Source of the DNA: Christensenella tenuis
GTDB taxonomy: Bacteria; Bacillota; Clostridia; Christensenellales; Christensenellaceae
Length of the DNA: 64,000 nucleotides
Assembly (NCBI RefSeq): GCF_014287795.1
Contig: NZ_JACOON010000006.1
Span: 194,024 to 258,023 of the forward strand
Direction: 5' to 3'
Numbering within the stretch: position 1 is the first letter of the stretch; each line of letters starts with the position of its first letter. The position numbers and the translations under genes are program-made. Below, piece after piece: positions 8,585 to 54,822 of the stretch. The notes below the pieces were generated by a model. The model had not been told where the DNA came from. It saw nothing but the letters and a program-made list of their open reading frames with translations, and did no database searches.

Positions 8585-9487
8585 TTAAAACACATGTGAA
8601 AGCGCATACCATGCCGCGCCCCGGACGCCCGCATTCACCGCCGCAGCCCGTTCGATCACCATATTCTCAGCGGGATACGGTTTTTTCACATGTTCGTAAA
8701 TTTTTCCCGTGAGCTTTTCATACGGAAAATGATCCATCCCGAGTATACCGCCCCCAAGAATTACAAGCGTCGGGTCGAAAATCGTGATTTCGGCTGCCAC
8801 GGGGATAGCGCAGGCTTCTATAAATTCTGCCAACTCGCGGGCGCCTTTATGTACCCGAAAAAGATCGGCAAGGGCGCAGTCCGCGAAACGCTCTTCCCAC
8901 AGGGAAGCAAGATACGCCCCCGACGCATAGCATTCGATGCAGCCTTTCTTGCCGCAGCCGCAGGTCCGCGTTCCCCCGAGCACCGGAATATGTCCTGCAT
9001 CGCAGCCGCTTCCGTGCGCGCCGCGCAGCAGATTGCCGCGGTAATACACACTGTTTCCAACGCCCGTTCCGAAATAGAAAGCAGTCACAATATCCTGCGC
9101 CCCCATCTGCCGTTCCATGATCTCCGCCTGGAGCAGCATATCCGTATCCTTGGCAATGGCAATGGGCAGCCCCAGGCTTTCCAGCCTGCTTACCACATCA
9201 ACGCCGCCAAAACCCTCGTCCGGGTTCTTCAGGTTCGGACAGGGGAATACCGTTCTTCCGTCCGCGGCAACCGGTGCGGGAAAGCCGATCCCAATGGCTT
9301 GCGCATCCCGTACCCCATTCGCCTCCATAAACGTCCGTATCTCTTCGGCCAGCAGATCCGCCGCTTTCCCACCTTCGCACAGCGCTTTGCTCGGTTTTTT
9401 ATCCAGGCAAAGTACCGTGCCGTCTTCGCGCACCCATCCGATACGAAAATTTGTGCCGCCGATATCGACCCCAATCGCACTTTTCAT
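8585..9487 (-). CDS. ROK family sugar kinase (glucokinase/fructokinase-like)
   Basis: MKSAIGVDIGGTNFRIG N-terminal ATPase motif. ROK zinc motif CGCGKKGCIECYASG. Last gene of the long minus-strand sugar operon. Confidence 0.85.
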   Translation of the reverse strand: MKSAIGVDIGGTNFRIGWVREDGTVLCLDKKPSKALCEGGKAADLLAEEIRTFMEANGVRDAQAIGIGFPAPVAADGRTVFPCPNLKNPDEGFGGVDVVSRLESLGLPIAIAKDTDMLLQAEIMERQMGAQDIVTAFYFGTGVGNSVYYRGNLLRGAHGSGCDAGHIPVLGGTRTCGCGKKGCIECYASGAYLASLWEERFADCALADLFRVHKGARELAEFIEACAIPVAAEITIFDPTLVILGGGILGMDHFPYEKLTGKIYEHVKKPYPAENMVIERAAAVNAGVRGAAWYALSHVF

Positions 9488-43106: not shown

Positions 43107-44594
43107 TTACTGGGCGAATGCCCACTTCATGAGCGTTTCCTGGTCAAAGTCTTCCCTTTGGACTTCCCCCATCATCTCCCCTTCGTGCAAAACGATGATT
43201 CTGTCGCACAGCCCCAATAGTTCGGGCATTTCAGAAGAAACCACGATAACCGCTTTTCCTTCCTCCGCCAGCTCGCAGATCAATTTATAAATCTCTGCTT
43301 TTGCGCCGACATCGATTCCACGCGTGGGTTCGTCCATGATGAGTATTTCCGCTTCATCCAGGAGAAGTTTTCCCAGCACCACCTTTTGCTGATTGCCGCC
43401 CGATAAGTTTTTGACAAGCTGTTCTTTCGATGGGGCTTTGATAGCCAGCATCTGCATCATCTTGTCCGCAAGCTCCGCTTCCTTTTTATTTCCGACAACA
43501 ATTCCATTAAAATATTTATTCAGGTTTGATAATGTGAGGTTTTTTTTGATCGACATCGGCAGGACGAGGCCCACTCCTTTTCTGTCTTCATTTACAAGCC
43601 CGATCTTATTTTTAATTGCATCTCCGGGATTTCTGATTGTGATTTGTTCGCCCCGGACATAGATCTCGCCTTCATCCAGTTTATCGATCCCATAGATCGC
43701 ACGCATAATTTCCGTCCGTCCCGCGCCCATCAGTCCTGCAAAGCCCAGTATTTCGCCTTTTCGCAGTGAAAACGAAATGTCATGGAATACGCCTTCCCGC
43801 TTGAGCCCTTTCACCTCAAATACCTGTTCGCCGATCTCATTGTTTTTTTCAGGATATACCTGCGATAACTCCCGCCCTACCATCGCAACGATAATCTGGT
43901 CGATATCGATATTCTCTGTTGGAAAAGTATCGATAAAGGTTCCGTCCCGCAAGATCGTTACTTCGTCTGAGATTTTTAGAACTTCATCCATTTTGTGCGA
44001 AATATAGACGATTGCTACCCCTTTTGCTTTCAGATCGTTCAGCACCGCGAAGAGCTGGTCCACCTCTTTGTCCGTTATTGCGGATGTAGGTTCGTCCATG
44101 ATTACGATTTTGGCGTTATAGGAAACGCATTTTGCAATTTCAACCATTTGCCTCTCGGAAACGCTGAGATCTTTCATCAGAACTTTGGGATCCAAGCTGA
44201 CGCCGACGCGTGCAAGAAGCTCTTTTGCTTTTTCGCACATCGCGGTTCTATCGATTATCCCGTTTTTCAGTATTTCCCTCCCAAGGAACATATTTTCTGC
44301 AATCGTCATATGGGGAATGTATGAAAGTTCCTGATGCACCATGGTGATCCCCATCCCGATCGCCTGCCCCTGGCTGTACCTGGAGATTTCCCTGCCGTCA
44401 TAAATTATCTTTCCGCTATCCGGTACGTACATCCCCATGAGAACCTTCATCAATGTTGATTTTCCGGCGCCGTTCTCTCCCATCAGCGCGTGGACCGTCC
44501 CACATTTTAATTTCAGGTTTACATTTTCAAGTGCCTTTACTCCCGGAAATGATTTACAAATATCAACCATTTCCAAAATATACTCATTAGCCAA
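43107..44594 (-). CDS. sugar ABC transporter ATP-binding protein, tandem NBDs
   Basis: Two Walker A / signature sets (GENGAGKST...LSGGNQQKV). Confidence 0.85.
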   Translation of the reverse strand: MANEYILEMVDICKSFPGVKALENVNLKLKCGTVHALMGENGAGKSTLMKVLMGMYVPDSGKIIYDGREISRYSQGQAIGMGITMVHQELSYIPHMTIAENMFLGREILKNGIIDRTAMCEKAKELLARVGVSLDPKVLMKDLSVSERQMVEIAKCVSYNAKIVIMDEPTSAITDKEVDQLFAVLNDLKAKGVAIVYISHKMDEVLKISDEVTILRDGTFIDTFPTENIDIDQIIVAMVGRELSQVYPEKNNEIGEQVFEVKGLKREGVFHDISFSLRKGEILGFAGLMGAGRTEIMRAIYGIDKLDEGEIYVRGEQITIRNPGDAIKNKIGLVNEDRKGVGLVLPMSIKKNLTLSNLNKYFNGIVVGNKKEAELADKMMQMLAIKAPSKEQLVKNLSGGNQQKVVLGKLLLDEAEILIMDEPTRGIDVGAKAEIYKLICELAEEGKAVIVVSSEMPELLGLCDRIIVLHEGEMMGEVQREDFDQETLMKWAFAQ

Positions 44595-44674
44595 TTTAAT
44601 TTACACACCACCTTTTAATGAAAAAAATTTTATACGTCTTGAAATGATTGTAAATGCTCTTTAATATGTTTCAC

Positions 44675-44703
44675 ATTTTACCACCGTTCTACCCATTAGT
44701 CAA
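44675..44703 (-). promoter_or_regulatory. sigma-A type promoter (minus strand) TTGACT-17-TAAAAT for the ABC/ThuA operon
   Basis: Reverse-strand reading gives cTTGACTaatgggtagaacggtggTAAAATg, about 80 bp upstream of the ATPase ATG. Confidence 0.5.
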
Positions 44704-44739
44704 GTGGCTTTTTAAAGTCATTTTAATTTAAATCAAAAA

Positions 44740-44772
44740 AATAAGCCTCTCTTTCTTCGAAAGAGAGGCCCG
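44740..44772 (-). terminator. terminator after the ROK regulator gene
   Basis: GCCTCTCTTTC-ttcg-GAAAGAGAGGC followed by a T-run on the minus strand. Confidence 0.65.
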
Positions 44773-44783
44773 GCGTCATAAAA

Positions 44784-45947
44784 TCAATACACTTTTTCCA
44801 CTTCCATAAAAAGGTTGAGCGGTATGATGGCGGCCCCCATCACAGAGGCGTTCATCCCCAGTTCAGAGACTACAATCCTGACATCTTTTTCGGAAAAAAG
44901 CTTCTCGCCGTTGAATGTGCGCTTTCTTACCTTTTCAATAAAGCTTTTCGCATAATTTGCCATTTCTCCGCCAAGAACAATATAGCGCGGATCAAATATC
45001 AAAATAATATTCCTCAGGCCAGCTGCCAGAAATTCGATATATTCATCCATGACTTCAGCGGCAGTCTCATTTTTTTGGTCGTACATTTCAAAAAACGCCC
45101 GCACAGATGAAGCTTTTTTCCCAGCTTTTTCGCGGTACAGGTCCAACAGGGCACGTTCGGAAATATAGGAGTTCCAGCACCCTTTGTTTCCACACACACA
45201 CATAGCTCCATCCTTCACGATTGTCATGTGCCCCAATTCTCCGGCCCGTTTGTTATATCCCTTGTAGACCTTGTTTCCGGAGATAATTCCCGCGCCAATA
45301 CCTTCATTGATAGAAATATAGACCATGTCATTCTTATTATGGCATACGCCGATTTTATATTCTGCAACTGCAGCGGCATTGGATTCATTTTCGACATAGA
45401 TCGGAAAATCAAACAGCGCTTCATATTTTCTGAAATCTATGTTATCGATGTTCAGATTAGCGGCAAATTCAAGAATTTTGTCCTTTTCATTCACAGTTCC
45501 GGGAAGCGATATCCCCATTCCGATAATCCGGGAGGAATCGATATTCATGATCTTCAGCATTTCGTCAATTTCGCTTTTTACATCGGACATCATTTTATCC
45601 ATATCGCGAAGAACATCGAATTCTATGAGCCGATCGCAGATAATTTCATAATTCATGTTAATAAGAACAAAGCGAATCCTGCCTATTTGAAAATCTACGC
45701 CAATCGAATATTTCGCATTTTTTACAAATTCGACAATCGTCGGACGGCGTCCGCCCGTAGAGCTTGCGACCCCAGCTTCTTTCAATACGCCAATTTCGAT
45801 TAGCTCATTGACGTTAGAGATGACCGTGGGCAGGCTGACGCTGATCGCCTTCCCAAGTTCGCTCTTTGTCATTTTCTTTTTCCGCCGCAGCAGGCTCATA
45901 ATTTTTCGCCTGTTAATATCTTTGATAACGCTTTGATCTACCTTCAA
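44784..45947 (-). CDS. ROK family transcriptional regulator (NagC/XylR-like)
   Basis: N-terminal winged HTH (DINRRKIMSLLRRKKKMTKSELGKAISVSLPTVISNVNELIEIGVL) plus a ROK sugar-kinase-like domain with a CxCGxxGC zinc motif. Confidence 0.85.
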   Translation of the reverse strand: MKVDQSVIKDINRRKIMSLLRRKKKMTKSELGKAISVSLPTVISNVNELIEIGVLKEAGVASSTGGRRPTIVEFVKNAKYSIGVDFQIGRIRFVLINMNYEIICDRLIEFDVLRDMDKMMSDVKSEIDEMLKIMNIDSSRIIGMGISLPGTVNEKDKILEFAANLNIDNIDFRKYEALFDFPIYVENESNAAAVAEYKIGVCHNKNDMVYISINEGIGAGIISGNKVYKGYNKRAGELGHMTIVKDGAMCVCGNKGCWNSYISERALLDLYREKAGKKASSVRAFFEMYDQKNETAAEVMDEYIEFLAAGLRNIILIFDPRYIVLGGEMANYAKSFIEKVRKRTFNGEKLFSEKDVRIVVSELGMNASVMGAAIIPLNLFMEVEKVY

Positions 45948-46589
45948 TCATTTAGTCCTCCGCCTTAAGTTAATAACATTCTATAATATCCCCAATAATT
46001 TTTCAAGGCATTTAAGTAAGTTGTTTTAAAAACAAATGCCCATTTTTCACGAATCATTACGAATGCAATCGGCTGTATTTCCCGAGACGACACCTACCGC
46101 TTTCCATGCTTCATCATTCCGCAAATTCGTACGCAAAAAGGATTTGGCATGTCTGCCAAATCCTTTATCGCTTTTAAAGAAACCGGTGGAGCGAGGCATA
46201 TGCGCCGCCCGAAAGCACCATAGATTCCATCCGGGATTCAAATTCACTGTTCCGTCCTTTCGCGGGCTGTTTCCTTTCCCTGCAAAATGATGGATTCCCG
46301 TTGCCCAACGGCAGCCCGCACCTTCGGCGCAGGGCGCATCCCGTCGCCTTCCTGCACGCCGGGCACGGCACAAAATTCCCCCAAGCCGCTGCACCGCGCA
46401 CATATTCCGGCGCGTGTACGTCCGCAGCAGCTAGCAAAAGTATCTCCCAAGCTAAAAACCATTGCCGTACTTCTTACCTGAACCTGCATCCAGTATAAAC
46501 ATACTTATCCAAGCAGTTTCCTTTTTTTTCATAAAATGAGCCATTTTCCTTTCCATTCCGTATATTCTAATATCAAGGAGGTAACGATC

Positions 46590-46841
46590 ATGGCAACTTT
46601 TACAGATGAAAACGGCAAAGTATTAACAGATGAGGAGCTTGAGCGGGCTGCGGGCGGATTTGGGATTTTTAATGGGAAAACAGGCCGGTCTAAAATGAGG
46701 TGGAAAGTTTGTCCCAAATGCGGCGGTACCGATTTCAAAGTCGATCCCGATCCCACTATAACAAAAACCGGCAGAGAGAATGGTCTTTATTACGCATGTA
46801 AAAAATGCGGTTGGACTGGCTGGATAGGCAATAACGAATAA
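46590..46841 (+). CDS. double-glycine-leader peptide precursor (83 aa): 23-aa leader + 60-aa core with two CxxC pairs
   Basis: AGGAGGT RBS 7 nt before the ATG. Leader MATFTDENGKVLTDEELERAAGG fits the GG-leader consensus (L-12, E-8, L-7, A-4, G-2, G-1). Core FGIFNGKTGRSKMRWKVCPKCGG...YYACKKCGWTGWIGNNE. Convergent with a C39-peptidase ABC exporter locus. Confidence 0.6.
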   Translation: MATFTDENGKVLTDEELERAAGGFGIFNGKTGRSKMRWKVCPKCGGTDFKVDPDPTITKTGRENGLYYACKKCGWTGWIGNNE

Positions 46842-46905
46842 CGGCGCCTTCCGGGCAGCGGCAAGCGGTTCCACTGCCGCCATGTTAAGCGGCGGCTTTC
46901 TTTTT

Positions 46906-48045
46906 CTACTGGCCTTCCATTTCCGTATGCACGAATTTCCCGCCTTGTATCACCAAATATTCGTAATCATACGGATCACTGTAGGAAACATCCGGCAGGC
47001 CGGTGAGAAGATCCGGAACAATATTCCCGGCGATGCCCTCTGCGCGATCCGCGTTCGCGCGCAGATTGGCAGGCAGCGTTTCATTGCTGCCGTCGTAATT
47101 TGAGGCGATCAGGTTCACAATGTCATAACCCTGTACCGCTTCGTTTTCCGGCGCCTCCCCATACTTTTCTTCATACCGCCGCGCCCATTCCGTATATTCT
47201 TCGCTTTGGTCAACCGGGTACATCGCGGGCACAACCGTTCCATCGAGCCCGCCCAGGGAATCGACCGTCTCCTGGCTGCCGAGCGTGAAGCTGGCGAGCA
47301 GTTTCATTTCCGGAAACAGCTCTTTGATTGCCGCAAGAATATCCGCGGCCCAATAAGACCTATAATAGGGAACATAGGCCGTATCTATGCCGAGCGCCCT
47401 CCAGGCATGCATTTCGTCCGCGAATTCCTGCTGCGTAAAGGGTTCGGACAGCGAGCCGGCCGTACTTGCGCCGCCTGTCCCCGACAGCAGTCCGCGTTCG
47501 AACGCATTTGCCTGCGCGATTTCAAACGGCGTTCCGCTATGTATCACCCCGACGTTTTGCGCGTTCCCGGCATTTGCGTAAAGCCCCATTGCAAACCCGA
47601 GGTGGCTCGCCGGAAGCGAGAAGGGAAAGAAGGAGGAATATCCTTTTCCCACTGTTTCGTCATAATACCCCTGTACTGCAAAAAATGCTTTATGAAAATC
47701 GTCCATTGTCTTTGCCGCAGCATCGATGACCTCATAATCCTGCAAGCTGACGACGGCAGTGATATTCGGGTCCTCCGCAAGCTTGTTGTCCGTTTCCAGC
47801 GACCCTTCAAATTCCTGCGCATCGCCATAAGTTTCCACACTGATTTGGTAAGGCCCGGTATATTCTTCGATTGCCATCTGCATTCCTTTTTCGTAGCGGG
47901 AGGCGTTATATTCCATGCCGCTGCGGTAAACGAGCGCAATCCTGATTGCGTTTGCGTCCTGCTGCACCGGCTGCTGCGCGCAGCCTGCAAACAGAACGCC
48001 CGCCACAACCAGGATGCATACCAGAATAAATATTATTTTTCTCAT
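46906..48045 (-). CDS. PBP type I (Leu/Ile/Val-binding-like) substrate-binding lipoprotein, no cognate permease nearby
   Basis: Lipoprotein signal ...LFAGCAQ. Type I periplasmic-binding-fold pattern. Confidence 0.55.
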   Translation of the reverse strand: MRKIIFILVCILVVAGVLFAGCAQQPVQQDANAIRIALVYRSGMEYNASRYEKGMQMAIEEYTGPYQISVETYGDAQEFEGSLETDNKLAEDPNITAVVSLQDYEVIDAAAKTMDDFHKAFFAVQGYYDETVGKGYSSFFPFSLPASHLGFAMGLYANAGNAQNVGVIHSGTPFEIAQANAFERGLLSGTGGASTAGSLSEPFTQQEFADEMHAWRALGIDTAYVPYYRSYWAADILAAIKELFPEMKLLASFTLGSQETVDSLGGLDGTVVPAMYPVDQSEEYTEWARRYEEKYGEAPENEAVQGYDIVNLIASNYDGSNETLPANLRANADRAEGIAGNIVPDLLTGLPDVSYSDPYDYEYLVIQGGKFVHTEMEGQ

Positions 48046-48072
48046 ATCATTACCACCATAGCCCGCCGCGCT

Positions 48073-50211
48073 TTATTTGATTTGGCGTGCGGCAAACTCA
48101 TAAAACAGTCCTTTCTTTCCCATGAGCTCGTCGTATGTTCCTTCCTCCGCAATCCTGCCGCCGTCAATCATCACAATCCGGTCGCATTTTTTTACGGTGG
48201 ACAGACGGTGTGCAATCACGATCCGCGTGCACCCGAGCTTTGCAATATTTTCAGCAACCTCGTTTTGCACAACGTTATCGAGGGCGCTTGTCGCTTCGTC
48301 AAACAAAAGCACTTGCGGCTTTCCGGCGAGAGCGCGCGCAATCAGAATCCGCTGCTTCTGGCCGCCGGAAATTCCGCCGCTGCCTTCGCTGATCATGGTA
48401 TACATACCCATGGGCATCTGCCCGATGTCTTCCGCGATCCCCGCGAGGCGCGCGGCCTCCCAGGCCTCGTCCAGTGTGCTCCACGGCGCAGTCAGTGTAA
48501 TATTGGAAAAAATATCCCCTGCGAACAGCTTTCCGTTTTGCAGGTCAACGCCGATCCTCTGGCGCATGCTTCGCAGGTCAAGCTCTTCGATGTCTTCGCC
48601 GTCGAAATAAACCGCGCCCGCTTCCGGCTTCTCAAAGCCGATCAGCAGCCGCATCAGCGTAGATTTCCCGCACCCGCTTTTTCCCACAATTCCAACGTAT
48701 TCCCCCGGTTTGATGTGCAGGCTGAAATCGTCGAGAACAACGGGCAAATCTTCACGGTACCGGAAGGTCACGTGGGAAAGCTCCACCTCGCCCCGGAGCT
48801 CTGCCACCTGCTTTTTGTTTTCGCCGGTTTCCGGCTGCGCGTCATAAATCGGCTGGACCATCTCCAGCAGCGGCCCTATGGACGCAAGCTGGGCCGTAAT
48901 GCCCGCAAGCGCCAGAAGCGCGGCAGAAACCGCTCCATAGGCGGTTGAAAAAGCAATATAGTCCGACTGTGAAACCTCGTTTTCTCCAGCAACGAAATAA
49001 AGGAGGATTGTGCCGCCGAGCGTGACAGCCGCTGAAATCGCGGTGCTGAACTTCAAAAACAGGGGCGGATTGTAGGAAAGCCTTCCCTCCTGCGAAAACA
49101 GCTTTGCCCATTTGGCAAACGCCCTCTTTTCCGCCCCGGCAAGTTTGATTTTCTGGATCCCGCCAAACAGGCTGAATACCAGGCCGTTCAGCTTGATGGA
49201 AATATCCGTTTTCCGCTTGGAAACATGAATTTGGACAATTGCCGTGAGGACAATGACCGCAAGCATAGCTGCAATGACGAGCATCCCCGGCCCCACGAGC
49301 GTAGGGGCAAAGGAGGCCATCTGGAAAATATACACAAATGAAAACAAAGCGGAAAGCCCGGTTGTAAGGACTGTTCCGGAAAGAATCTCCCCGATCGCGT
49401 TCATGCTGCCCACGCGTTCGGAAAGTTCGCCCGCCGAATAGTCTTTAAAAAAGGAAACGGGCAGGGAAAATACCCGTGACATCACCGCGTTTTGCGAAGC
49501 CACCGACATTTTATCCATAAACCGGCGCAGGATGAGGCTGCGCGATATGCCGAAAAGCAGGCTCCCGACCGTGGCCCCGACAAGAAGGGCCGTTACCGGA
49601 AAAACATCCGCCGTCAGGCCGCCGGGAATGATATTATCAAAAATCAGCTTGTTGATCTGCGGAAGGACCATCCCAAGGAGGCTTACGCACAGCGACGCGA
49701 CAAGCACCCAGATGACATCCCCCACGGAAAAGGAATGCAGGCGGAACATCAGCGTATCGATGAGCTTCAGCGGTTTGGCGGGAAACCCGCGGTAAAAGCA
49801 GAGCGCCTGCTCCAGAAGCTCCCCGGCTGTTTTTTCGTTGATCCGTACTTTTCCGTTTTCGTCATGGTAAGCGTAGCCGCCAAAGGCCATAGGCAGCAGC
49901 GCCACCGGCGTTCCGTCTTTTTTTGCGCCAAGCAGCGGCCCTGTCGCGTCCTTCCACCATTTTCCGGTCAGCTCCACGCGCCGGTGCATGACGCCGGTCG
50001 GCCGCAGCACATATTCAACCCTTTCATATGGATCTTCAATTTTGTCCGGCACTTCCCCCGCTTCGATCTTCCAAAAACGAAGCACCTCCTGCAACGCGCC
50101 GTCGATTCCCTTTTTTCGGTCAGGCGCGCTTTTTCCCGCGTGCGGTTTCTCAAAAATCGAAAGAAGGTCCCGGAGCGCTTCGTCCATTGCCTTTTGTTCC
50201 TCTTTTCCCAC
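48073..50211 (-). CDS. ABC transporter ATPase/permease with ~150 aa N-terminal peptidase-less domain (NHLM-type bacteriocin exporter, second ABC component)
   Basis: N-terminal soluble domain lacking a catalytic Cys, 6 TM, NBD (GKSGCGKST, LSGGQKQR, LLFDEATSALD, IAHRLST). Confidence 0.7.
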   Translation of the reverse strand: MGKEEQKAMDEALRDLLSIFEKPHAGKSAPDRKKGIDGALQEVLRFWKIEAGEVPDKIEDPYERVEYVLRPTGVMHRRVELTGKWWKDATGPLLGAKKDGTPVALLPMAFGGYAYHDENGKVRINEKTAGELLEQALCFYRGFPAKPLKLIDTLMFRLHSFSVGDVIWVLVASLCVSLLGMVLPQINKLIFDNIIPGGLTADVFPVTALLVGATVGSLLFGISRSLILRRFMDKMSVASQNAVMSRVFSLPVSFFKDYSAGELSERVGSMNAIGEILSGTVLTTGLSALFSFVYIFQMASFAPTLVGPGMLVIAAMLAVIVLTAIVQIHVSKRKTDISIKLNGLVFSLFGGIQKIKLAGAEKRAFAKWAKLFSQEGRLSYNPPLFLKFSTAISAAVTLGGTILLYFVAGENEVSQSDYIAFSTAYGAVSAALLALAGITAQLASIGPLLEMVQPIYDAQPETGENKKQVAELRGEVELSHVTFRYREDLPVVLDDFSLHIKPGEYVGIVGKSGCGKSTLMRLLIGFEKPEAGAVYFDGEDIEELDLRSMRQRIGVDLQNGKLFAGDIFSNITLTAPWSTLDEAWEAARLAGIAEDIGQMPMGMYTMISEGSGGISGGQKQRILIARALAGKPQVLLFDEATSALDNVVQNEVAENIAKLGCTRIVIAHRLSTVKKCDRIVMIDGGRIAEEGTYDELMGKKGLFYEFAARQIK

Positions 50212-50232
50212 GTTCCACTCCTCCTTCCTTCT

Positions 50233-52356
50233 TCAATCGTCCAACAATTTTTCGTAGGTTCCATGCCTCGCGAGCAGGCTTTCATGCGTGCCGCGCTCCG
50301 CCACGTTCCCATGATCCAGGACAATAATTTCCCCGCAGTCGCGGATCGTTGAAAGCCGGTGGGCAATGATAATGAGCGTGATCCCCTTCTCTTTCAGGTT
50401 TTCCATGATTTGCTGCTCTGTTTTGGCGTCCAGGGCGGACGTCGCCTCGTCCAGAATCAAAACGGACGGTTTCCTGACCAGGGCGCGGGCAATCTCAAGG
50501 CGCTGGCGCTGCCCCCCGGAATAATTTTTCCCGCCGTCCACCACCATATCGTCGTATCCGTCCGGACGCAGCATAATATCCTCATGGATTTCGGCGGTCT
50601 TGCATGCCTCGACCACATCCGAAAAGGGAATGCTCCGGTCCCACATTGTAATGTTATTCAGCACCGTATCCTCAAACAGGACGATTTCCTGATCCACCAC
50701 GCTTACGGAATCCGTAAGAATGCTCCGCGGGATCTCCCCGCGCGGGGTTCCGTCGAACAAAATACGTCCCTCCCACGGCGGATACAGCCCGGAGATCAGT
50801 TTAGCCAACGTCGATTTTCCGCTACCCGAAGCACCGACGAACGCAATGCTCTTTCCGCATTCCACGTGCAGGCTGAATTCCGAGATCAGCGGCGGCGAAA
50901 GTTTCGCGTACCCAAACGTCACGCCTTCCATATCGACCGTCCCCCGCAGTTTTCCGTCCGCTTCCCCTTCTTCGGATACGTCCGGTTTATAATGGAATAC
51001 GTCGTCGATCCGTTCCATTTGTGTGCGCATTTCAAAAAACGTCGTGCCTACCTGCACAATTTCGTTGACCGGCGCGAGGAAAGAAGACAAAATTCCCTGG
51101 AACGCAAGCAGGGTACCTATGGTGAAGCTGCCGTCCAGAATGAGGTATACGCCGAGCATCAGCACCGCGATATTCGCAAGCTGCTGCACAAACTGCGGAA
51201 TCATATTATAAAACTGGTTTGCTTTTTGCAGTTGGATTTTTCCGTTGTTGGCGCGGGCATACGTCCCGCTCCAGCGTTCAAAATACCCGTTTTCCGCCCC
51301 TGCCGCCTTGATGCTTTCCGCCATATCGAAGCCTGCCGCGGTAACGCCCGAAAGAAGGCCCATATCCCGCTCAATCACCCGGCTGGCATTGACGCGTTTT
51401 TTGGCAATGATACGCATGACCGCCAAATTCACCGCAGCGGCGGCAATGCCCACAGCGGAAAGAAGGACGCTGTAGCGCAGCAGGACGATCAGGTACAGCA
51501 CCAGCAGGCACACGTTGACGGCAAGCGGCGCGATCCTTCCGATCAGCGTAGAGGCGATTCCTTCATTGCTTGCCTGCCGCGCGGCAATATCGCCGATATA
51601 GCGCTGTGCAAAAAAACCGACCGGCAGCCGCAGCACATGCCACATGAAGGACGAGCTGGCCACCGTTGCCATCTTCCCCTGAATACGCATCCAATATACA
51701 TTCTGGATGGACGCCGTTACAAACTGGAAAACCAGCACCGCCAGCATGACGGAAATGAGAGGCGTCAGCCATTCCGGATTTTTCCCGGATAAAATGTTGT
51801 CCATAAACACCTTGGAAAACAGGGGAATTACAATGGCAATGGCCGCAGCAATGAGCGACCACAGCATCACAAACACAACCGCCCCCCGGCTCCCCCGGAG
51901 TCTTTTCCTTGCAAAATCCATAACGCTCGCGGGCTTTCCTTCCCGCCGGAACGCCTCCGCCGGTTCGAAGCAAAGGACAATTCCGGTGAACGAGCGGTCA
52001 AATTCCTCCATGCCCACGGATATCCTTCCGCGCGCCGGGTCGTTTATCACAGCTTTGTCTCCTTTGAACCCGCACAGCACAACGAAATGGTTAAAATTCC
52101 AATGCAGGATAGCCGGAAAGCCACACTGTTTTACATCCTCGATTTCCATCCGGTAGCCCGCGGCCTCAAGGCCGTAGGCCCTCGCTGCCGTCACGAGGCT
52201 TTTCGCGCTGCTGCCGTCGCGCGATACCCCGCAATCGCCGCGCACCTGTTCCAGCGACAGCCATTTCCCATAAAAGGCAAGCACCATCGCCAGGCAGGCG
52301 GCTCCGCATTCAAGCGCCTCCATCTGCATAACCACCGGGACCTTTGCCACCTTCAT
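50233..52356 (-). CDS. peptidase C39-containing ABC transporter (bacteriocin/double-glycine peptide maturation and export, PCAT)
   Basis: N-terminal C39 domain with catalytic Cys (QMEALECGAACLAMVLAFYG) and His (NFNHFVVL). 6 TM. NBD (GASGSGKST, YSGGQRQRL, LILDEATSALD, IAHRLST). Confidence 0.85.
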   Translation of the reverse strand: MKVAKVPVVMQMEALECGAACLAMVLAFYGKWLSLEQVRGDCGVSRDGSSAKSLVTAARAYGLEAAGYRMEIEDVKQCGFPAILHWNFNHFVVLCGFKGDKAVINDPARGRISVGMEEFDRSFTGIVLCFEPAEAFRREGKPASVMDFARKRLRGSRGAVVFVMLWSLIAAAIAIVIPLFSKVFMDNILSGKNPEWLTPLISVMLAVLVFQFVTASIQNVYWMRIQGKMATVASSSFMWHVLRLPVGFFAQRYIGDIAARQASNEGIASTLIGRIAPLAVNVCLLVLYLIVLLRYSVLLSAVGIAAAAVNLAVMRIIAKKRVNASRVIERDMGLLSGVTAAGFDMAESIKAAGAENGYFERWSGTYARANNGKIQLQKANQFYNMIPQFVQQLANIAVLMLGVYLILDGSFTIGTLLAFQGILSSFLAPVNEIVQVGTTFFEMRTQMERIDDVFHYKPDVSEEGEADGKLRGTVDMEGVTFGYAKLSPPLISEFSLHVECGKSIAFVGASGSGKSTLAKLISGLYPPWEGRILFDGTPRGEIPRSILTDSVSVVDQEIVLFEDTVLNNITMWDRSIPFSDVVEACKTAEIHEDIMLRPDGYDDMVVDGGKNYSGGQRQRLEIARALVRKPSVLILDEATSALDAKTEQQIMENLKEKGITLIIIAHRLSTIRDCGEIIVLDHGNVAERGTHESLLARHGTYEKLLDD

Positions 52357-52367
52357 ATGCCGCCTCC

Positions 52368-53300
52368 TCACGAATTAAGCAAAAGCTCGTAAGGCTTCTG
52401 TTCGTCTATGACGACGAGGAGGTCGCAGACGGTTCCCGTTGAAAGCTCGAGCGTATTTCCTTTTGGGTTCGACCACGCCGCGGAATTTCCCGCACCGCTG
52501 TATTCCGCGTCAAGCGAAATAGACACCCTGACTTCGATGCTGTTGCCCTCTTCCATGATCTCCGCTACATATTGCTTGTTTCCCACGGCGGCCGTAATAT
52601 CGTTATCCGTCACCGGATACTCCCCGATTTCGGAAATATAGCCTATCATATATCCATATTCCTCGCGCGAGACATAAGACGGGCAGGCCTGCACCTCCAT
52701 CCCTTCCGAAAGCTTGCGCGCTGTATCCACAGGCACATAACACAGGATTTCATAACTGTTCGTGCCCTCCTCGATCCGCGCGAGGCTGGCAACCTGTTCG
52801 TTCTCCCCCACAATATCGTTCACGTGCACCGTATCCAGCACGATTCCATAAACCTCCGAACGGATGACCGAGGCGGCGGCATATTCATTTTGTTTTTGCA
52901 TAATCAGCGTCTCGTCCTTTTCTTCCGCCGCCTGCAGCTGTTCGAGTTCGGCCGCGAGTTCCGGCTGCGGGATCACTGCCAGAATATCGTGCGGCATGAC
53001 CATATCCCCAACGCTTACGCGCACGTCATGCACCTTCCCGCCGCCTGTCGAGAGCACGGAAACCGTGCCGTCCCCCGGGAACACTACTCCCTTCATTTCA
53101 AGGGTATCTGGAATCGTGCCGACGGCAAACCAGACGGCCGCCGCCACCACAACGGCAATGCAGGCAACCAGCACGCTCCATATGCCGGGATTTGTTATTT
53201 TCACATATTCATCCAGTTTTTCCGGGGAAGCTGCGTTTTCTAGCGATTTCTTCCGAAAAAGGTCTTTGGCCATAGCAATCTCCCAATTTGTTTTATCCAT
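52368..53300 (-). CDS. HlyD-family membrane fusion/secretion accessory protein
   Basis: N-terminal cytoplasmic tail, single TM (IWSVLVACIAVVVAAAVWFAV), coiled-coil (ELAAELEQLQAAEEKDETL) and beta-barrel-sandwich segments. Confidence 0.7.
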   Translation of the reverse strand: MDKTNWEIAMAKDLFRKKSLENAASPEKLDEYVKITNPGIWSVLVACIAVVVAAAVWFAVGTIPDTLEMKGVVFPGDGTVSVLSTGGGKVHDVRVSVGDMVMPHDILAVIPQPELAAELEQLQAAEEKDETLIMQKQNEYAAASVIRSEVYGIVLDTVHVNDIVGENEQVASLARIEEGTNSYEILCYVPVDTARKLSEGMEVQACPSYVSREEYGYMIGYISEIGEYPVTDNDITAAVGNKQYVAEIMEEGNSIEVRVSISLDAEYSGAGNSAAWSNPKGNTLELSTGTVCDLLVVIDEQKPYELLLNS

Positions 53301-53349
53301 ATTGCCCCGCCCGCGCCGCGGGCAGGGGAAGGGCTGCGTACAAACGCCC

Positions 53350-53874
53350 CTAATCCATTAAATCACGAATTTCCTCTGTACGCAATTTTTTTAACGTCCG
53401 CCCGAGAACTGTGCCTACCGTGCTTTCGTTCATGCCAAGCCGTTTTGCGATCTCTCTATTTTTATATCCTTCAAAGTAACGATAGTATAGGATCATGCGC
53501 TCCTTTTCTTTCAGGCCCATAAGTTCCCGCAGCAACGCCCGCCGCTTAGGCAAAGCGATCCTGTCAAACTGAACGTCGAAATCCACGGCAATTTCCACCC
53601 GTGCGTTTTCGTCGTCCAACGAGGCCTCTTTTTTCTGTTTCCGGTAAAAATCGGTCAGGGTATTTTTTGCGATATGGAATATCCAGGTTTTAAACGAAGC
53701 CTTCTTTTCATCAAACCGGTGCATATTTTTTGCAGCCTTCATGAAAGTTTCGCTTACCAGGTCTTCCGTATCCTCCCTGCGAAGGATGCGGTAAAAAATA
53801 TAATTGTATATTTTGGGAAAATATTCTTCATACAGCTCTTCAAAAGCTTTGACGTGCGTCATTCCGAACTCCAT
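53350..53874 (-). CDS. RNA polymerase sigma-70 factor, ECF subfamily
   Basis: Region 2 (FEELYEEYFPKIYNYIFYRILRREDTEDLVSETFMKA) and region 4 HTH (YKNREIAKRLGMNESTVGTVLGRTLKKLR). Confidence 0.85.
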   Translation of the reverse strand: MEFGMTHVKAFEELYEEYFPKIYNYIFYRILRREDTEDLVSETFMKAAKNMHRFDEKKASFKTWIFHIAKNTLTDFYRKQKKEASLDDENARVEIAVDFDVQFDRIALPKRRALLRELMGLKEKERMILYYRYFEGYKNREIAKRLGMNESTVGTVLGRTLKKLRTEEIRDLMD

Positions 53875-54233
53875 TCATTCCTGCGTTTTATGCATTCGTA
53901 TCCTTTGTTCGCGGCAGACCGCCCTGCCAAAAAAATTTTTGGCAGGAAAAACCATTTCCGCAGCTTTTTCAGGTCATATTGAGCTATCTTTTTTCTCCAG
54001 ACGTATATCCTTTATGGAGGCGCAGAACCAAAGGGGTCTCCGTGGAAAAAGGAACCTCTGCGCGGCACAGGCGCGAAGCTTCAAAAAACCGCGGCTATAC
54101 TCCGGCGGAGGGCCGCAACGGTGTGAAATTTCCGCATCCGCGGGCGGTTTTGCTATGCCGGAAAAATAAAATCCGGCCTTCCGGGGGCGGATGTTTTCCG
54201 TTCTGTGCAGCCGCTCCGTGGCTTTTGCACTCT

Positions 54234-54464
54234 TCAGCGCACGGTATCGTCCTTGTTCCTGTCCATATCTTCCATTGGGCAGGGCACACCCGCCGCATGG
54301 ATCTCTTCCAGTTCGCTGTCCGCCAATTGACGGAAGCACTTTTTTTGAATCATCTGAAGCAGGTCTTTCTTCAGCCCGCTGTCCAGCGAAAAATCCGCAA
54401 AATCCGGAACCCCGTTCCTGCTTCTTTCACCGTCTGGAAAGGAAAACAGTTTTTCTCTCTTGTT
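54234..54464 (-). CDS. small peptide (77 aa) with Nif11/NHLP-like leader C-terminus (..LADSELEEIHAAG) and short Cys-containing tail; uncertain
   Basis: GGGGGAG RBS 9 nt before ATG (MNKREKLF...). The segment QLADSELEEIHAAG|VPCPMEDMDRNKDDTVR resembles leader ends of the LSDEELEAVAGG type. Lies upstream of the ECF sigma and exporter genes on the same strand. Confidence 0.35.
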   Translation of the reverse strand, partial: NKREKLFSFPDGERSRNGVPDFADFSLDSGLKKDLLQMIQKKCFRQLADSELEEIHAAGVPCPMEDMDRNKDDTVR

Positions 54465-54822
54465 CATCTGCTCAATCTCCCCCATTGCTATTTATATCCT
54501 ATACGCGCGATGCAATGAAGCGGCTCATTTTCACAGGAAAATCCGGTTTTACCCGTGGGGATTCGTCCGGCCCGGTTTGCCTTTCCGGGTGCCGTTGCGG
54601 GCCTTGGCCCCGGCTTCTTCGCACGTTTGGCTGCGGCAGGGAAATAAAACGCGCATTTTAACATCGTTTATTATATGCCGGCCCGCCCCCTATTGTCCTT
54701 TTCCCGGATATCCGGTATTCGGAAAAGGGGCCTTTTTACCATCCCTCTTACAGCCAAACCGGCCACAGCCGCGCACAGGCCTTTTGCCCGCCGTCCGCTT
54801 TTTCCCGATGCGGGGAAGGCCG

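Follow-up and report, generated by a model that had tools for sequence, protein, structure and literature searches.

A sigma factor-bearing NHLM-type export cassette flanked by double-glycine peptide genes in a Christensenellales bacterium

In the 64,000-nucleotide stretch of DNA analysed here (the window), the minus strand carries a cassette of genes for an ECF sigma factor, a short HlyD-like adaptor, two ABC exporters, the first with a C39 peptidase domain, and a lipoprotein of the Peripla_BP_6 family. The gaps between the genes of this sigma-hlyD-abc1-abc2-pbp string are 11-76 nt. The host is a gut-type Clostridia bacterium of the order Christensenellales. A first-pass annotation made from the sequence had placed five ORFs head-to-tail on the minus strand, and all five were found where it had put them. 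Its span of 46906-53874 left out, however, the two double-glycine (GG) peptide genes that flank the string, pepA (54234-54467, minus strand) and pepB (46590-46841, plus strand), and their promoters, which are part of the same unit as the sigma/exporter string. The synteny comparison that it recommended found the string conserved across species, including Christensenella minuta. The same gene order was present in at least seven Christensenellales loci with differing flanks, and since its genomic neighbourhood differs from species to species, the cassette behaves as a unit.

The export machinery is of the NHLM type that had been anticipated, all three transport proteins passing the curated cut-offs of the NCBIfam equivalog models on which this assignment is based. 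The HlyD-like membrane-fusion/adaptor protein (52368..53273, minus strand; 301 aa with one N-terminal TM segment) scored 198.6 bits against TIGR03794 (cut-off 156.2), with the match broken in two by the lack of the central hairpin region. Alignment with diderm homologues showed that the alpha-helical hairpin is nearly absent, this region being reduced to about 30 aa. The gene had been correctly recognised but its start at 53300 is replaced by 53273 as the most likely position, since homologues of 300-301 aa begin with MAKDLF; overall, homologue lengths range over 296-306 aa. ABC1 (50233..52356, minus strand) is a peptidase-containing ABC exporter (PCAT) with Peptidase_C39 (3.6e-36), ABC_membrane and ABC_tran domains in Pfam, a TIGR03796 score of 945.6 bits (cut-off 853.3) and full-length matches to PCAT1 (4ry2, 2.5e-93) and ComA (8hf7). 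The C39 Cys and His that had been reported as intact are both readable in the translation (…ECGAAC… and …NHFVVL…), as is the Asp. ABC2 (48073..50211, minus strand; ABC_membrane and ABC_tran; TIGR03797 741.4 bits, cut-off 709.4) had no C39 match in Pfam and is peptidase-less as described; its N-terminal domain of ~150 aa had no detectable similarity to C39 (BLASTP E=1.8; hhalign probability 0.4%).

Clear N11P/Nif11-type precursor genes, in arrays, lie next to the exporter in 42 of 90 loci of exporter relatives. Family membership and the conserved gene adjacency suggest that the precursors would be cut behind their GG/AG motif by the C39 domain of ABC1, at the cytoplasmic face, and that their C-terminal parts would then cross the single membrane by way of ABC1 and ABC2 (probably paired as a heterodimer) together with the short HlyD-like adaptor and lipoprotein. 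That no modification enzyme is visible at the locus was borne out by domain searches of the neighbouring genes, which detected no leader-dependent enzyme (LanM, YcaO, rSAM etc.) in the window or on contig L091, which is nearly identical; the related loci L004, L085, L086 and L087 do have such enzymes.

The sigma gene (53350..53874, minus strand; alternative start 53862) encodes a 174-aa ECF (group 4) protein, which in Pfam has region 2 (Sigma70_r2) and region 4 (Sigma70_r4_2) only, without region 3. It scored 109 bits against TIGR02937 (cut-off 42.9), and its closest solved structures are 6dxo and SigW (5wuq). Orthologues occupy the same position in L001, L003, L005, L006, L007, L017 and L088. 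A perfect 11-2-11 inverted repeat (53923..53946; CCTGCCAAAAA/TTTTTGGCAGG), a possible operator or 5'-UTR hairpin, precedes the sigma start by about 50-70 nt. Sigma-A-like promoters precede the sigma gene in L001 and L003, and we propose that sigma-hlyD-abc1-abc2-pbp would be transcribed as a single operon that in the relatives has a sigma-A-type promoter of its own. There is no anti-sigma factor beside the sigma gene, the downstream gene being hlyD and the upstream gene pepA, and domain and ORF searches of the cassette found neither a membrane-spanning anti-sigma factor nor any other transducer. Some ECF groups are known to be without a cognate anti-sigma factor (PMC7826278).

At the other end of the string, the Peripla_BP_6 gene (46906..48045, minus strand; Pfam 2.1e-14) encodes a lipoprotein with a type I solute-binding fold and the lipobox LFAGC. 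ECF sigma factors commonly respond to envelope signals, and the first-pass annotation had suggested an envelope-signal-regulated secretion system, in which the lipoprotein and the sigma factor sense an extracytoplasmic cue and so switch on peptide secretion. The lipoprotein would be suited to such a role, being extracytoplasmic with a ligand-binding fold, but it adjoins HlyD-ABC1-ABC2 in 56 of the 59 complete Bacillota loci, most of which do not have this sigma factor, and in none of the 9 diderm loci. Furthermore, it accompanies the exporter whatever the regulator (e.g. MalT/LuxR in Fusibacter), and its homologues are nearly all lipoproteins. With no transducer in the cassette, no link found between the sigma factor and envelope stress, and a cytoplasmically made GG peptide as the conserved partner of the sigma factor, we consider the envelope-signal model very unlikely. 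Since its adjacency to the exporter is regulator-independent, the lipoprotein looks like a lineage-specific fourth component of the monoderm exporter rather than a sigma-specific sensor.

Both flanking genes encode GG leaders with canonical hydrophobic spacing. PepA, preceded by a GGGGGAG RBS, is a 77-aa peptide, probably a diverged Nif11-type (N11P-like) one, with the leader …ADFSLDSGLKKDLL…SELEEIHAAG and, behind it, a hydrophilic tail of 17 aa (VPCPMEDMDRNKDDTVR); cleavage is predicted either between AA and G or after AAG, a spread of one residue. The peptide in the window has no Pfam or NCBIfam match and lies below every Nif11 threshold there, and the long-form profile of the family matches a Nif11 leader of solved structure, 9zn4_A, along its entire length (E=0.023). 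PepB is an 83-aa precursor with a strong RBS (AAGGAGG), in which a 23-aa leader (MATFTDENGKVLTDEELERAAGG) precedes a 60-aa CxxC…CxxC zinc-ribbon-like core. It belongs to a family of about 10 small proteins that share this leader and in which four Cys are invariant or nearly so. Its zinc-ribbon HMM matches are weak, and its AF2 model is of low confidence, the best fold matches being non-significant and all zinc ribbons. The leader of pepB (…LTDEELERAAGG) occurs together with the C39-bearing ABC1 and the HlyD-like protein, the combination looked for in class II bacteriocin export. A missing immunity gene is unusual for a bacteriocin locus, and no small hydrophobic ORF was found in 45948-46905 or 53875-54822, the only candidate immunity gene being that for a 117-aa multi-TM protein in the relative L090. 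PepB would be an unmodified zinc-ribbon-like mini-protein of ~60 aa, a candidate class-II-bacteriocin-like or other secreted effector.

The suggested search for promoters upstream of 46590 and ~54464 revealed ECF-type -35/-10 elements at both. The motif TGAG(C/A)(C/T)-N16-17-CGTAT has three matches in the window, against 0.11 expected, all of them inside the cassette, and two copies precede the RBS of pepA and of pepB by 20-30 nt. Both are exact matches to TGAGCC-N16-CGTATA, the putative pepA promoter at 54500..54527 (minus strand), ~30 nt before the RBS and the ATG at 54467, and that of pepB at 46537..46564 (plus strand). As the pepA promoter precedes the sigma gene's own unit, the layout is that of a putative autoregulated ECF-type system. 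The same motif was found upstream of the pepA orthologues in L001, L003, L006, L007, L015, L077, L088 and L090, eight loci in which it precedes pepA, pepB or N11P precursor genes; pepB is preceded by it in L001 and by a relaxed version of it in L006. The strict motif was absent upstream of pepA in L005 and from the more distant sigma relatives L013, L079 and L085-L087. Overall, loci with the sigma factor had 9 occurrences per 166 kb, and those without it had 1 per 1,192 kb (Poisson ~5e-14). The sigma factor thus appears to use the pepA and pepB promoters, a link that is correlative, and from comparative genomics it would direct RNA polymerase to TGAGCC-N16-CGTATA ahead of both genes.

It could be argued that the sigma factor is a mere neighbour of a constitutive bacteriocin or RiPP pump, regulating unrelated genes, and that the motif is coincidental. 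A sigma homologue of 57% identity does indeed lie outside any such cassette, in an unrelated context (L089), and most exporter loci have no such sigma factor. However, the gene order recurs between different flanks, sigma and pepA are also linked in distant Clostridia with rearranged orders, and the motif is enriched only in sigma loci, where it is placed ahead of precursor genes. We regard this neighbour-only reading as highly improbable.

The association of the sigma factor with pepA is close. By family HMM, a pepA-family gene was found beside the sigma family in 9 of 10 loci but in none of 72 sigma-less loci (p=3e-11). In FlgM-sigma28, a small regulator whose gene is under that sigma factor is exported via the machine it controls, freeing the sigma factor. 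By analogy only, full-length pepA might bind and hold the ECF sigma factor in the cytoplasm until an active PCAT cleaves or exports it, so that the freed sigma factor turns on the cargo genes and synthesis is coupled to exporter capacity. In keeping with this, the cassette has no gene for a conventional anti-sigma factor, and the sigma factor has no conserved partner other than pepA. PepA occupies the classical anti-sigma slot immediately 3' of the sigma gene in L013, L079, L085 and L086 (with an 8-nt overlap in L013), its ORF overlaps the sigma start in L015 and L077, L013 has two separate sigma-pepA pairs in which each sigma paralogue has its own pepA paralogue, and in C. minuta and L005 pepA is the sole GG peptide near the cassette. 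However, there is no homology to FlgM, the cassette exporter is an ABC/PCAT and not a type III apparatus, and binding of pepA to the sigma factor is hypothetical. No anti-sigma domain was detected in the pepA family by Pfam, by PDB sequence profile or by Foldseek on the AF2 model. In PCATs the cleaved leader remains cytoplasmic, so that a sigma-binding part would not necessarily be removed by cleavage alone. Some members of the family have conserved 4-Cys tails and one adjoins an rSAM/SPASM maturase, so that they look like real products, and relatives carry other sigma regulators beside the sigma gene (RsbW/STAS/SpoIIE in L087; PdaC/DUF3298 RsiV-like in L090). The family aligns instead with Nif11 leaders, which are conserved because the transport system recognises them (Haft 2010, PMC2887384). 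A FlgM-like role for pepA is therefore judged unlikely, and we favour pepA as an exported product of the autoregulated unit of the sigma factor, most likely a signal peptide or dedicated cargo. Through the pepA/sigma unit, expression of the sigma factor and production of the peptide would form an on/off module with positive feedback. The cassette encodes no receptor for a pepA-derived signal and no product that would restrain an autoregulated sigma factor.

Among known systems, the cassette resembles the NHLM/Nif11-NHLP system (PMC2887384) in that its three transport genes stand side by side in canonical order and encode proteins above the equivalog cut-offs and in that the exporter relatives lie beside Nif11-type precursor arrays; pepA probably has a diverged Nif11-type leader. 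Haft et al. described a three-gene transport cluster and mentioned neither a sigma factor nor a binding protein (PMC2887384), whereas the cassette adds a conserved Peripla_BP_6 lipoprotein gene and a dedicated ECF sigma factor with its own motif, and differs further in its short-leader zinc-ribbon-like cargo, near-hairpinless HlyD and lack of a modification enzyme. With the PCAT systems for class II bacteriocins and pheromones (PCAT1 4ry2; ComAB/ComC; BlpAB; LcnC/LcnD) it shares an ABC exporter fused to a C39 domain with Cys and His, small unmodified peptides that carry double-glycine leaders, and an accessory membrane-fusion-like protein. Unlike these systems, it has a second, peptidase-less ABC protein and a lipoprotein, and is without a histidine kinase, response regulator, Rgg or other receptor. 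The circuit of ComC-ComAB-ComX likewise pairs an alternative sigma factor with a GG peptide; the sigma factor of the cassette is however of the ECF type, is encoded inside it and apparently drives the precursor promoters directly. Actinomycete lantibiotic clusters (MibX/MibW for microbisporicin, PspX/PspW for planosporicin) have a pathway-specific ECF sigma factor, ECF-type promoters ahead of precursor and cluster genes, and feed-forward autoregulation; MibW and PspW are membrane anti-sigma factors next to the sigma factor, and these clusters also have lanthionine synthetases. The cassette is similar in having an ECF sigma factor inside a ribosomal-peptide cluster with ECF-type promoters ahead of the precursors, but it has no detectable anti-sigma factor and the constant neighbour of its sigma factor is a small GG peptide.

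The pump is therefore of a known type, while the sigma/peptide control pair and the extra surface lipoprotein appear not to have been described in the literature searched. We think it probable that the cassette is a self-contained, sigma-controlled secretion unit for GG peptides built on a known NHLM/Nif11-type exporter, in which the sigma factor would drive pepA and pepB, the exporter would cut and ship their products and the lipoprotein would serve as a fourth component. More speculatively, and with a joint likelihood that we put low, the sigma/pepA pair may represent a new form of ECF control without a membrane anti-sigma factor, in which a Nif11-like GG peptide is both PCAT substrate and sigma regulator, acting as a secretion-coupled anti-sigma factor or flux sensor, or as an autoinducer read back via the exporter or the lipoprotein, with the latter an unrecognised fourth NHLM subunit. 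If this were true, the lipoprotein would adapt or gate NHLM exporters in single-membrane bacteria, and gut Clostridia, including Christensenella minuta, would possess a new secretion-coupled signalling module.

The third copy of the motif (TGAGCT-N16-CGTATA, 53980..54007, plus strand) is directed away from the sigma gene and lies antisense to pepA. Downstream of it there was no convincing ORF and no Rfam family, and RNA folds were not significant. Finally, a GC-rich hairpin (46874..46895) with a T-run on the plus side lies between the convergent lipoprotein and pepB genes; it is the terminator of pepB and probably also that of the operon.

The five ORFs running head-to-tail on the minus strand from 53874 to 46906 are separated by gaps of only 11-76 nt and encode, in order, an ECF sigma factor (53350-53874; Pfam Sigma70_r2 and Sigma70_r4_2), an HlyD-like protein (52368-53273; no Pfam match), ABC1, a C39-peptidase ABC exporter (50233-52356; Peptidase_C39, ABC_membrane and ABC_tran), ABC2, a peptidase-less ABC exporter (48073-50211; ABC_membrane and ABC_tran), and a Peripla_BP_6 lipoprotein (PBP; 46906-48045) with the lipobox LFAGC. 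The HlyD-like protein most likely starts at 53273, since its homologues are 300-301 aa long and begin with MAKDLF. The first-pass annotation took this string for a peptide export module of the Nif11/NHLP (NHLM) type under an ECF sigma factor, and its structural reading was right: all three transport proteins scored above the curated NCBIfam cut-offs, the HlyD-like protein with 198.6 bits for TIGR03794 (cut-off 156.2), ABC1 with 945.6 bits for TIGR03796 (cut-off 853.3) and ABC2 with 741.4 bits for TIGR03797 (cut-off 709.4). The exporter belongs to the NHLM family, whose description as a three-gene cluster mentions no sigma factor and no binding protein (Haft et al. 2010, PMC2887384). In ABC1 the catalytic residues Cys, His and Asp are all present, and the protein matched PCAT1 (4ry2, 2.5e-93) and ComA over its full length. 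The proposal that the N-terminal ~150 aa of ABC2 form a Cys-less C39-like domain was not supported (BLASTP E=1.8; hhalign probability 0.4% with profiles of 53-61 sequences). Inside the operon, a generic scan for terminators and promoters gave hits at chance level.

The cassette is flanked by two small genes whose products both carry double-glycine (GG) leaders. The 77-aa pepA ORF (54234-54467, minus strand; RBS GGGGGAG) lies 5' of the sigma gene and translates as MNKREKLFSFPDGERSRNGVPDFADFSLDSGLKKDLLQMIQKKCFRQLADSELEEIHAAG followed by VPCPMEDMDRNKDDTVR, while the 83-aa pepB ORF (46590-46841, plus strand; RBS AAGGAGG) is convergent with the lipoprotein gene and translates as MATFTDENGKVLTDEELERAAGG followed by FGIF…CPKC…CKKC…. 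When the 5' regions of pepA and pepB were compared with those of their orthologues, a common motif was found, TGAG(C/A)(C/T)-N16-17-CGTAT(A/G). In ECF promoters a -10 element containing CGT is set 16-17 nt from the -35 element, and the motif has this architecture. The ECF-type promoters predicted in the first pass were thereby borne out, with one copy ~30 nt 5' of the pepA RBS (54527-54500, minus) and another ~12 nt 5' of the pepB RBS (46537-46564, plus). A third copy, TGAGCT-N16-CGTATA (53980-54007, plus), lies in the pepA-sigma gap, antisense to pepA. These three are the only matches in the window, all inside the cassette, against 0.11 expected, and none of 100 shuffles gave three. With up to two mismatches, extra matches across the window occurred only at chance level and no further regulon members emerged, nor were other GG-leader, Nif11 or pepB-type ORFs found in the 64 kb. 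Among the comparison loci from other genomes, the strict motif occurred 9 times per 166 kb where the sigma factor was present versus once per 1,192 kb where it was absent (Poisson ~5e-14), and the matches precede pepA, pepB or Nif11-type precursor genes.

We propose that the ECF sigma factor would use TGAGCC-N16-CGTATA promoters, that the C39 domain of ABC1 would cut off the leaders in the cytoplasm, and that the two ABC proteins would translocate the C-terminal parts together with the short HlyD-like adaptor and the lipoprotein as partners. The string from sigma to PBP would form one operon, which has its own sigma-A-type promoter in the relatives L001 and L003, and would also be fed by read-through from the pepA promoter, creating positive feedback. 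About 110-150 nt past the pepA stop codon a composite hairpin, rich in GC and with a T-run behind it, may act as a brake on such read-through. The third motif copy may drive an antisense RNA or sRNA. Terminator-like hairpins at 54131-54144 and 54176-54188 (plus) come after it, and the pepA-sigma gap measures 360 nt here versus 106-157 nt in relatives, which are without this copy. We rejected the presence of structured RNAs, riboswitches and known sRNAs in the gap and elsewhere in the 45.8-55 kb region, as Rfam gave one sub-threshold match and folding yielded z-scores of -1.45 and -0.95. About 50-70 nt 5' of the start codon of sigma lies a perfect 11-2-11 inverted repeat, CCTGCCAAAAA/TTTTTGGCAGG (53923-53946), possibly an operator or a hairpin in the 5'-UTR; its sequence was not conserved in L001 or L003.

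One genome per GTDB species was scanned, giving 80 loci that were annotated by phmmer. Among the loci surveyed, the sigma family was confined to the Christensenellales loci L001, L003, L005, L006, L007 and L017 and to L013 (twice), L015, L077 and L079. In every sigma-bearing locus except the truncated L017 a pepA-family gene adjoins sigma, versus none of the 72 sigma-less loci (p=3e-11). The order is conserved within the Christensenellales, with pepA 5' of sigma: L001 (Christensenellaceae) reads pepA-sigma-HlyD-ABC1-ABC2-PBP-pepB, all on one strand, L003 reads pepA-sigma-HlyD-ABC1 up to the contig end, and L088 (C. minuta) has the complete pepA-sigma-HlyD-ABC1-ABC2-PBP cassette. Elsewhere pepA overlaps the start of the sigma gene (L015, L077) or lies directly 3' of it (L013, L079), L013 containing two separate pairs, in one of which the genes overlap by 8 nt.

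The pepA family shares the pattern (A/Y)DFS..(E/D)S.L…LL, then …(D/E)EL..V.A(A/G)G, then a tail. A profile search returned only 25 clusters, all "hypothetical", among them long forms of 98-144 aa, and in the long-form contexts sigma was again paired with pepA, within NHLM/RiPP clusters. These include L085 (Desulfosporosinus; TetR-sigma-pepA-Nif11-…-B12-rSAM-DUF7005-PBP-HlyD-ABC1) and L086 (Desulfotomaculum; PBP-HlyD-ABC1-ABC2-DUF7005-sigma-pepA-…-Nif11×2-YcaO×2-rSAM-LanM). Searching from the sigma side gave, besides L088, the locus L090 (Petroclostridium sp. X23; ABC1-ABC2-PBP-Nif11×4-membrane protein-pepA-(RR)-sigma-PdaC/DUF3298), with three motif copies, and a sigma with 57% identity in an Oscillospiraceae MAG (L089) in an unrelated context. 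Both L085 (7924-9036) and L086 (8317-9429) encode the 370-aa DUF7005 protein between the exporter genes and the sigma/pepA pair, and the Christensenellales cassette has no such gene. At L090:7279-11019 one copy of the motif stands 5' of pepA and of the gene for a candidate immunity protein, 117 aa long with multiple TM segments, and another copy between the stop codon of sigma and the PdaC/DUF3298 gene. The product of the latter is RsiV-like and may thus serve the L090 sigma relative as an anti-sigma factor of the receptor type.

pepA had no match in Pfam or NCBIfam. Its one-to-one pairing with sigma, the anti-sigma-gene slot that it takes in some loci and the lack of any anti-sigma factor in the cassette would fit a regulatory role. 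An anti-sigma function is in our view the less probable reading, the searches for such a domain being negative: Pfam at E≤10 with ten family members gave nothing relevant, Foldseek with the AF2 model of the long form (helical, pLDDT 73) gave no fold match, anti-sigma domains included, and the long-form profile against PDB sequences found only a Nif11 leader. This sole match, the Nif11 domain protein 9zn4_A, was end to end (E=0.023), aligning "…LAQLLAKADFS…ELEDDELDMVAGG" with "…IEIAKEKGYDFT…ELSDSELEAVAGG". Since the match was end to end and no anti-sigma fold was detected, we read pepA as a probable diverged Nif11-type leader with a short tail, N-terminally truncated in the Christensenellales. 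The tails comprise 13-21 hydrophilic residues in the Christensenellales, a "VNLN.M.D..KKKD" pattern in the Desulfo-type long forms, a conserved peptide of ~35 aa with four Cys in L015, L077 and L090, and a Cys-rich sequence in the L013b type. In L087 (10001-19308) the pepA-family protein P0056 is encoded directly 5' of an rSAM/SPASM enzyme. These tail classes and this neighbour make pepA more likely to be a genuine exported product (signal or cargo) than a protein that only binds sigma. The rSAM/SPASM gene of L087 is followed by genes for a SpoIIE-phosphatase, STAS, an ECF-like sigma, an RsbW-like kinase, a 129-aa protein, a C39 ABC and a second ABC, making this locus a partner-switching-controlled version of the sigma/pepA/exporter theme.

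The metagenomic contig L091 (JGI 3300001682) is 99.5-99.96% identical to 45-62 kb of the window. At ~8460 it has a 1-nt deletion in pepA directly before the GG motif (GCGAACTGG to GCG-ACTGG), giving a frameshifted 129-aa product (P0061), and in its sigma gene the alignment breaks, with ~100 nt versus ~204 nt in the window, possibly a scaffold gap. This variant may represent a real loss of function or an assembly error.

The nearest functional analogues are the ECF-controlled lantibiotic clusters (MibX/MibW) and the ComC-ComAB-ComX circuits. The latter work through a two-component system and the former possess a membrane anti-sigma factor, whereas none was found in the cassette, and this absence raises the question of how sigma is controlled. 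The earlier interpretation that the system responds to an envelope signal was not supported. In the searchable literature we found no functional study of an NHLM exporter, known since 2010 only as a three-gene bioinformatic family, and no link of NHLM/Nif11/PCAT exporters to ECF sigma factors, anti-sigma factors or binding proteins. Nor did we find accounts of the sigma/pepA pair, the pepB family or a partnership between lipoprotein and exporter, and the paper that reclassified ECF sigma factors is silent on contexts with C39, bacteriocins or HlyD (PMC7826278). What is new is a testable regulatory circuit for one NHLM branch, in which a dedicated ECF sigma factor is combined with a defined promoter motif and with two peptide genes as targets, together with a small Nif11-like peptide family that travels with the sigma factor. 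Christensenella minuta, a health-associated species of the human gut, is in culture and has the cassette, so the predictions are directly testable.

An exhaustive HMMER search showed the pepB family to consist of about ten small proteins (76-96 aa) with the leader MA(N/T)F.DE.GK.L(T/S)EEEL…GG and with four Cys that are invariant or nearly so (CxxC…CxxC). Copies lie beside the cassette in L001 (two) and L006, the second pepB-like gene of L001, from a Christensenellaceae NSJ genome, being divergent and 5' of pepA (8627-8914, minus). No pepB was found within 9-10 kb of the cassette in C. minuta or L005, so the cargo content is variable while pepA, sigma and the exporter are constant. Weak HMM matches of pepB were zinc ribbons in every case, and the best, non-significant fold matches of its low-confidence AF2 model (pLDDT 62) were zinc-ribbon proteins as well. 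Such zinc-ribbon-like mini-proteins with a GG leader form a class not described before and are candidates for secreted effectors or bacteriocins. The first pass noted no modification enzyme, and we likewise found none near pepB or the cassette, nor an immunity gene near pepB. The giant proteins P0158 and P0160, with many stretches matching pepB, were dismissed as compositional artefacts, being Cys-free repeat proteins. The gene for a ROK-family regulator (44784-45947) falls within a stretch of low GC (44001-46000; 0.42 versus about 0.52 for the window), and the ~580-nt ORF-poor region between it and pepB contains a hairpin with a 13-bp stem and T-rich tail (46137-46166, plus).

The short HlyD family is small, with 45 clusters among 5.8 billion proteins, and its named members belong to Christensenellaceae, Fusibacter and Streptomyces. 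In Fusibacter (L004) HlyD-ABC1-ABC2-PBP is accompanied by an rSAM/SPASM enzyme and three Nif11 precursors, and a MalT/LuxR regulator replaces sigma. The lipoprotein gene was directly 3' of ABC2 in 13 loci and directly 5' of HlyD in 43. Counting Bacillota loci with both flanks covered, it adjoined the exporter in 56 of 59, versus 0 of 9 diderm loci from Bacteroidales, Treponema and Acidobacteriota (Fisher's exact p=4e-9). Lipoboxes were seen by eye in nearly all homologues, a strict regular expression capturing 29/55. This nearly constant pairing with a solute-binding-fold lipoprotein in Bacillota is also new, and suggests that the exporter is there a four-component machine of single-membrane bacteria. 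The idea that the short HlyD is itself limited to monoderms was dropped because Bacteroidales homologues are short too. The only complete Bacillota loci without an adjoining Peripla_BP_6 gene were of Syntrophomonadales type (L077, L078, L079, L081), and their HlyD-like ORFs are even shorter, at about 200-245 aa. The conserved linkage to leader-peptide genes expected of an NHLM exporter in the first-pass annotation holds among the relatives of this exporter, since Nif11-type precursor genes adjoin it in 42/90 loci, in arrays of up to 14. In L027, L028, L033, L042, L060, L062 and L063, from Oscillospiraceae and other Clostridia MAGs, 11-14 tandem precursor genes follow directly after the exporter, 3' of ABC2, at about 15-20 kb in each locus.
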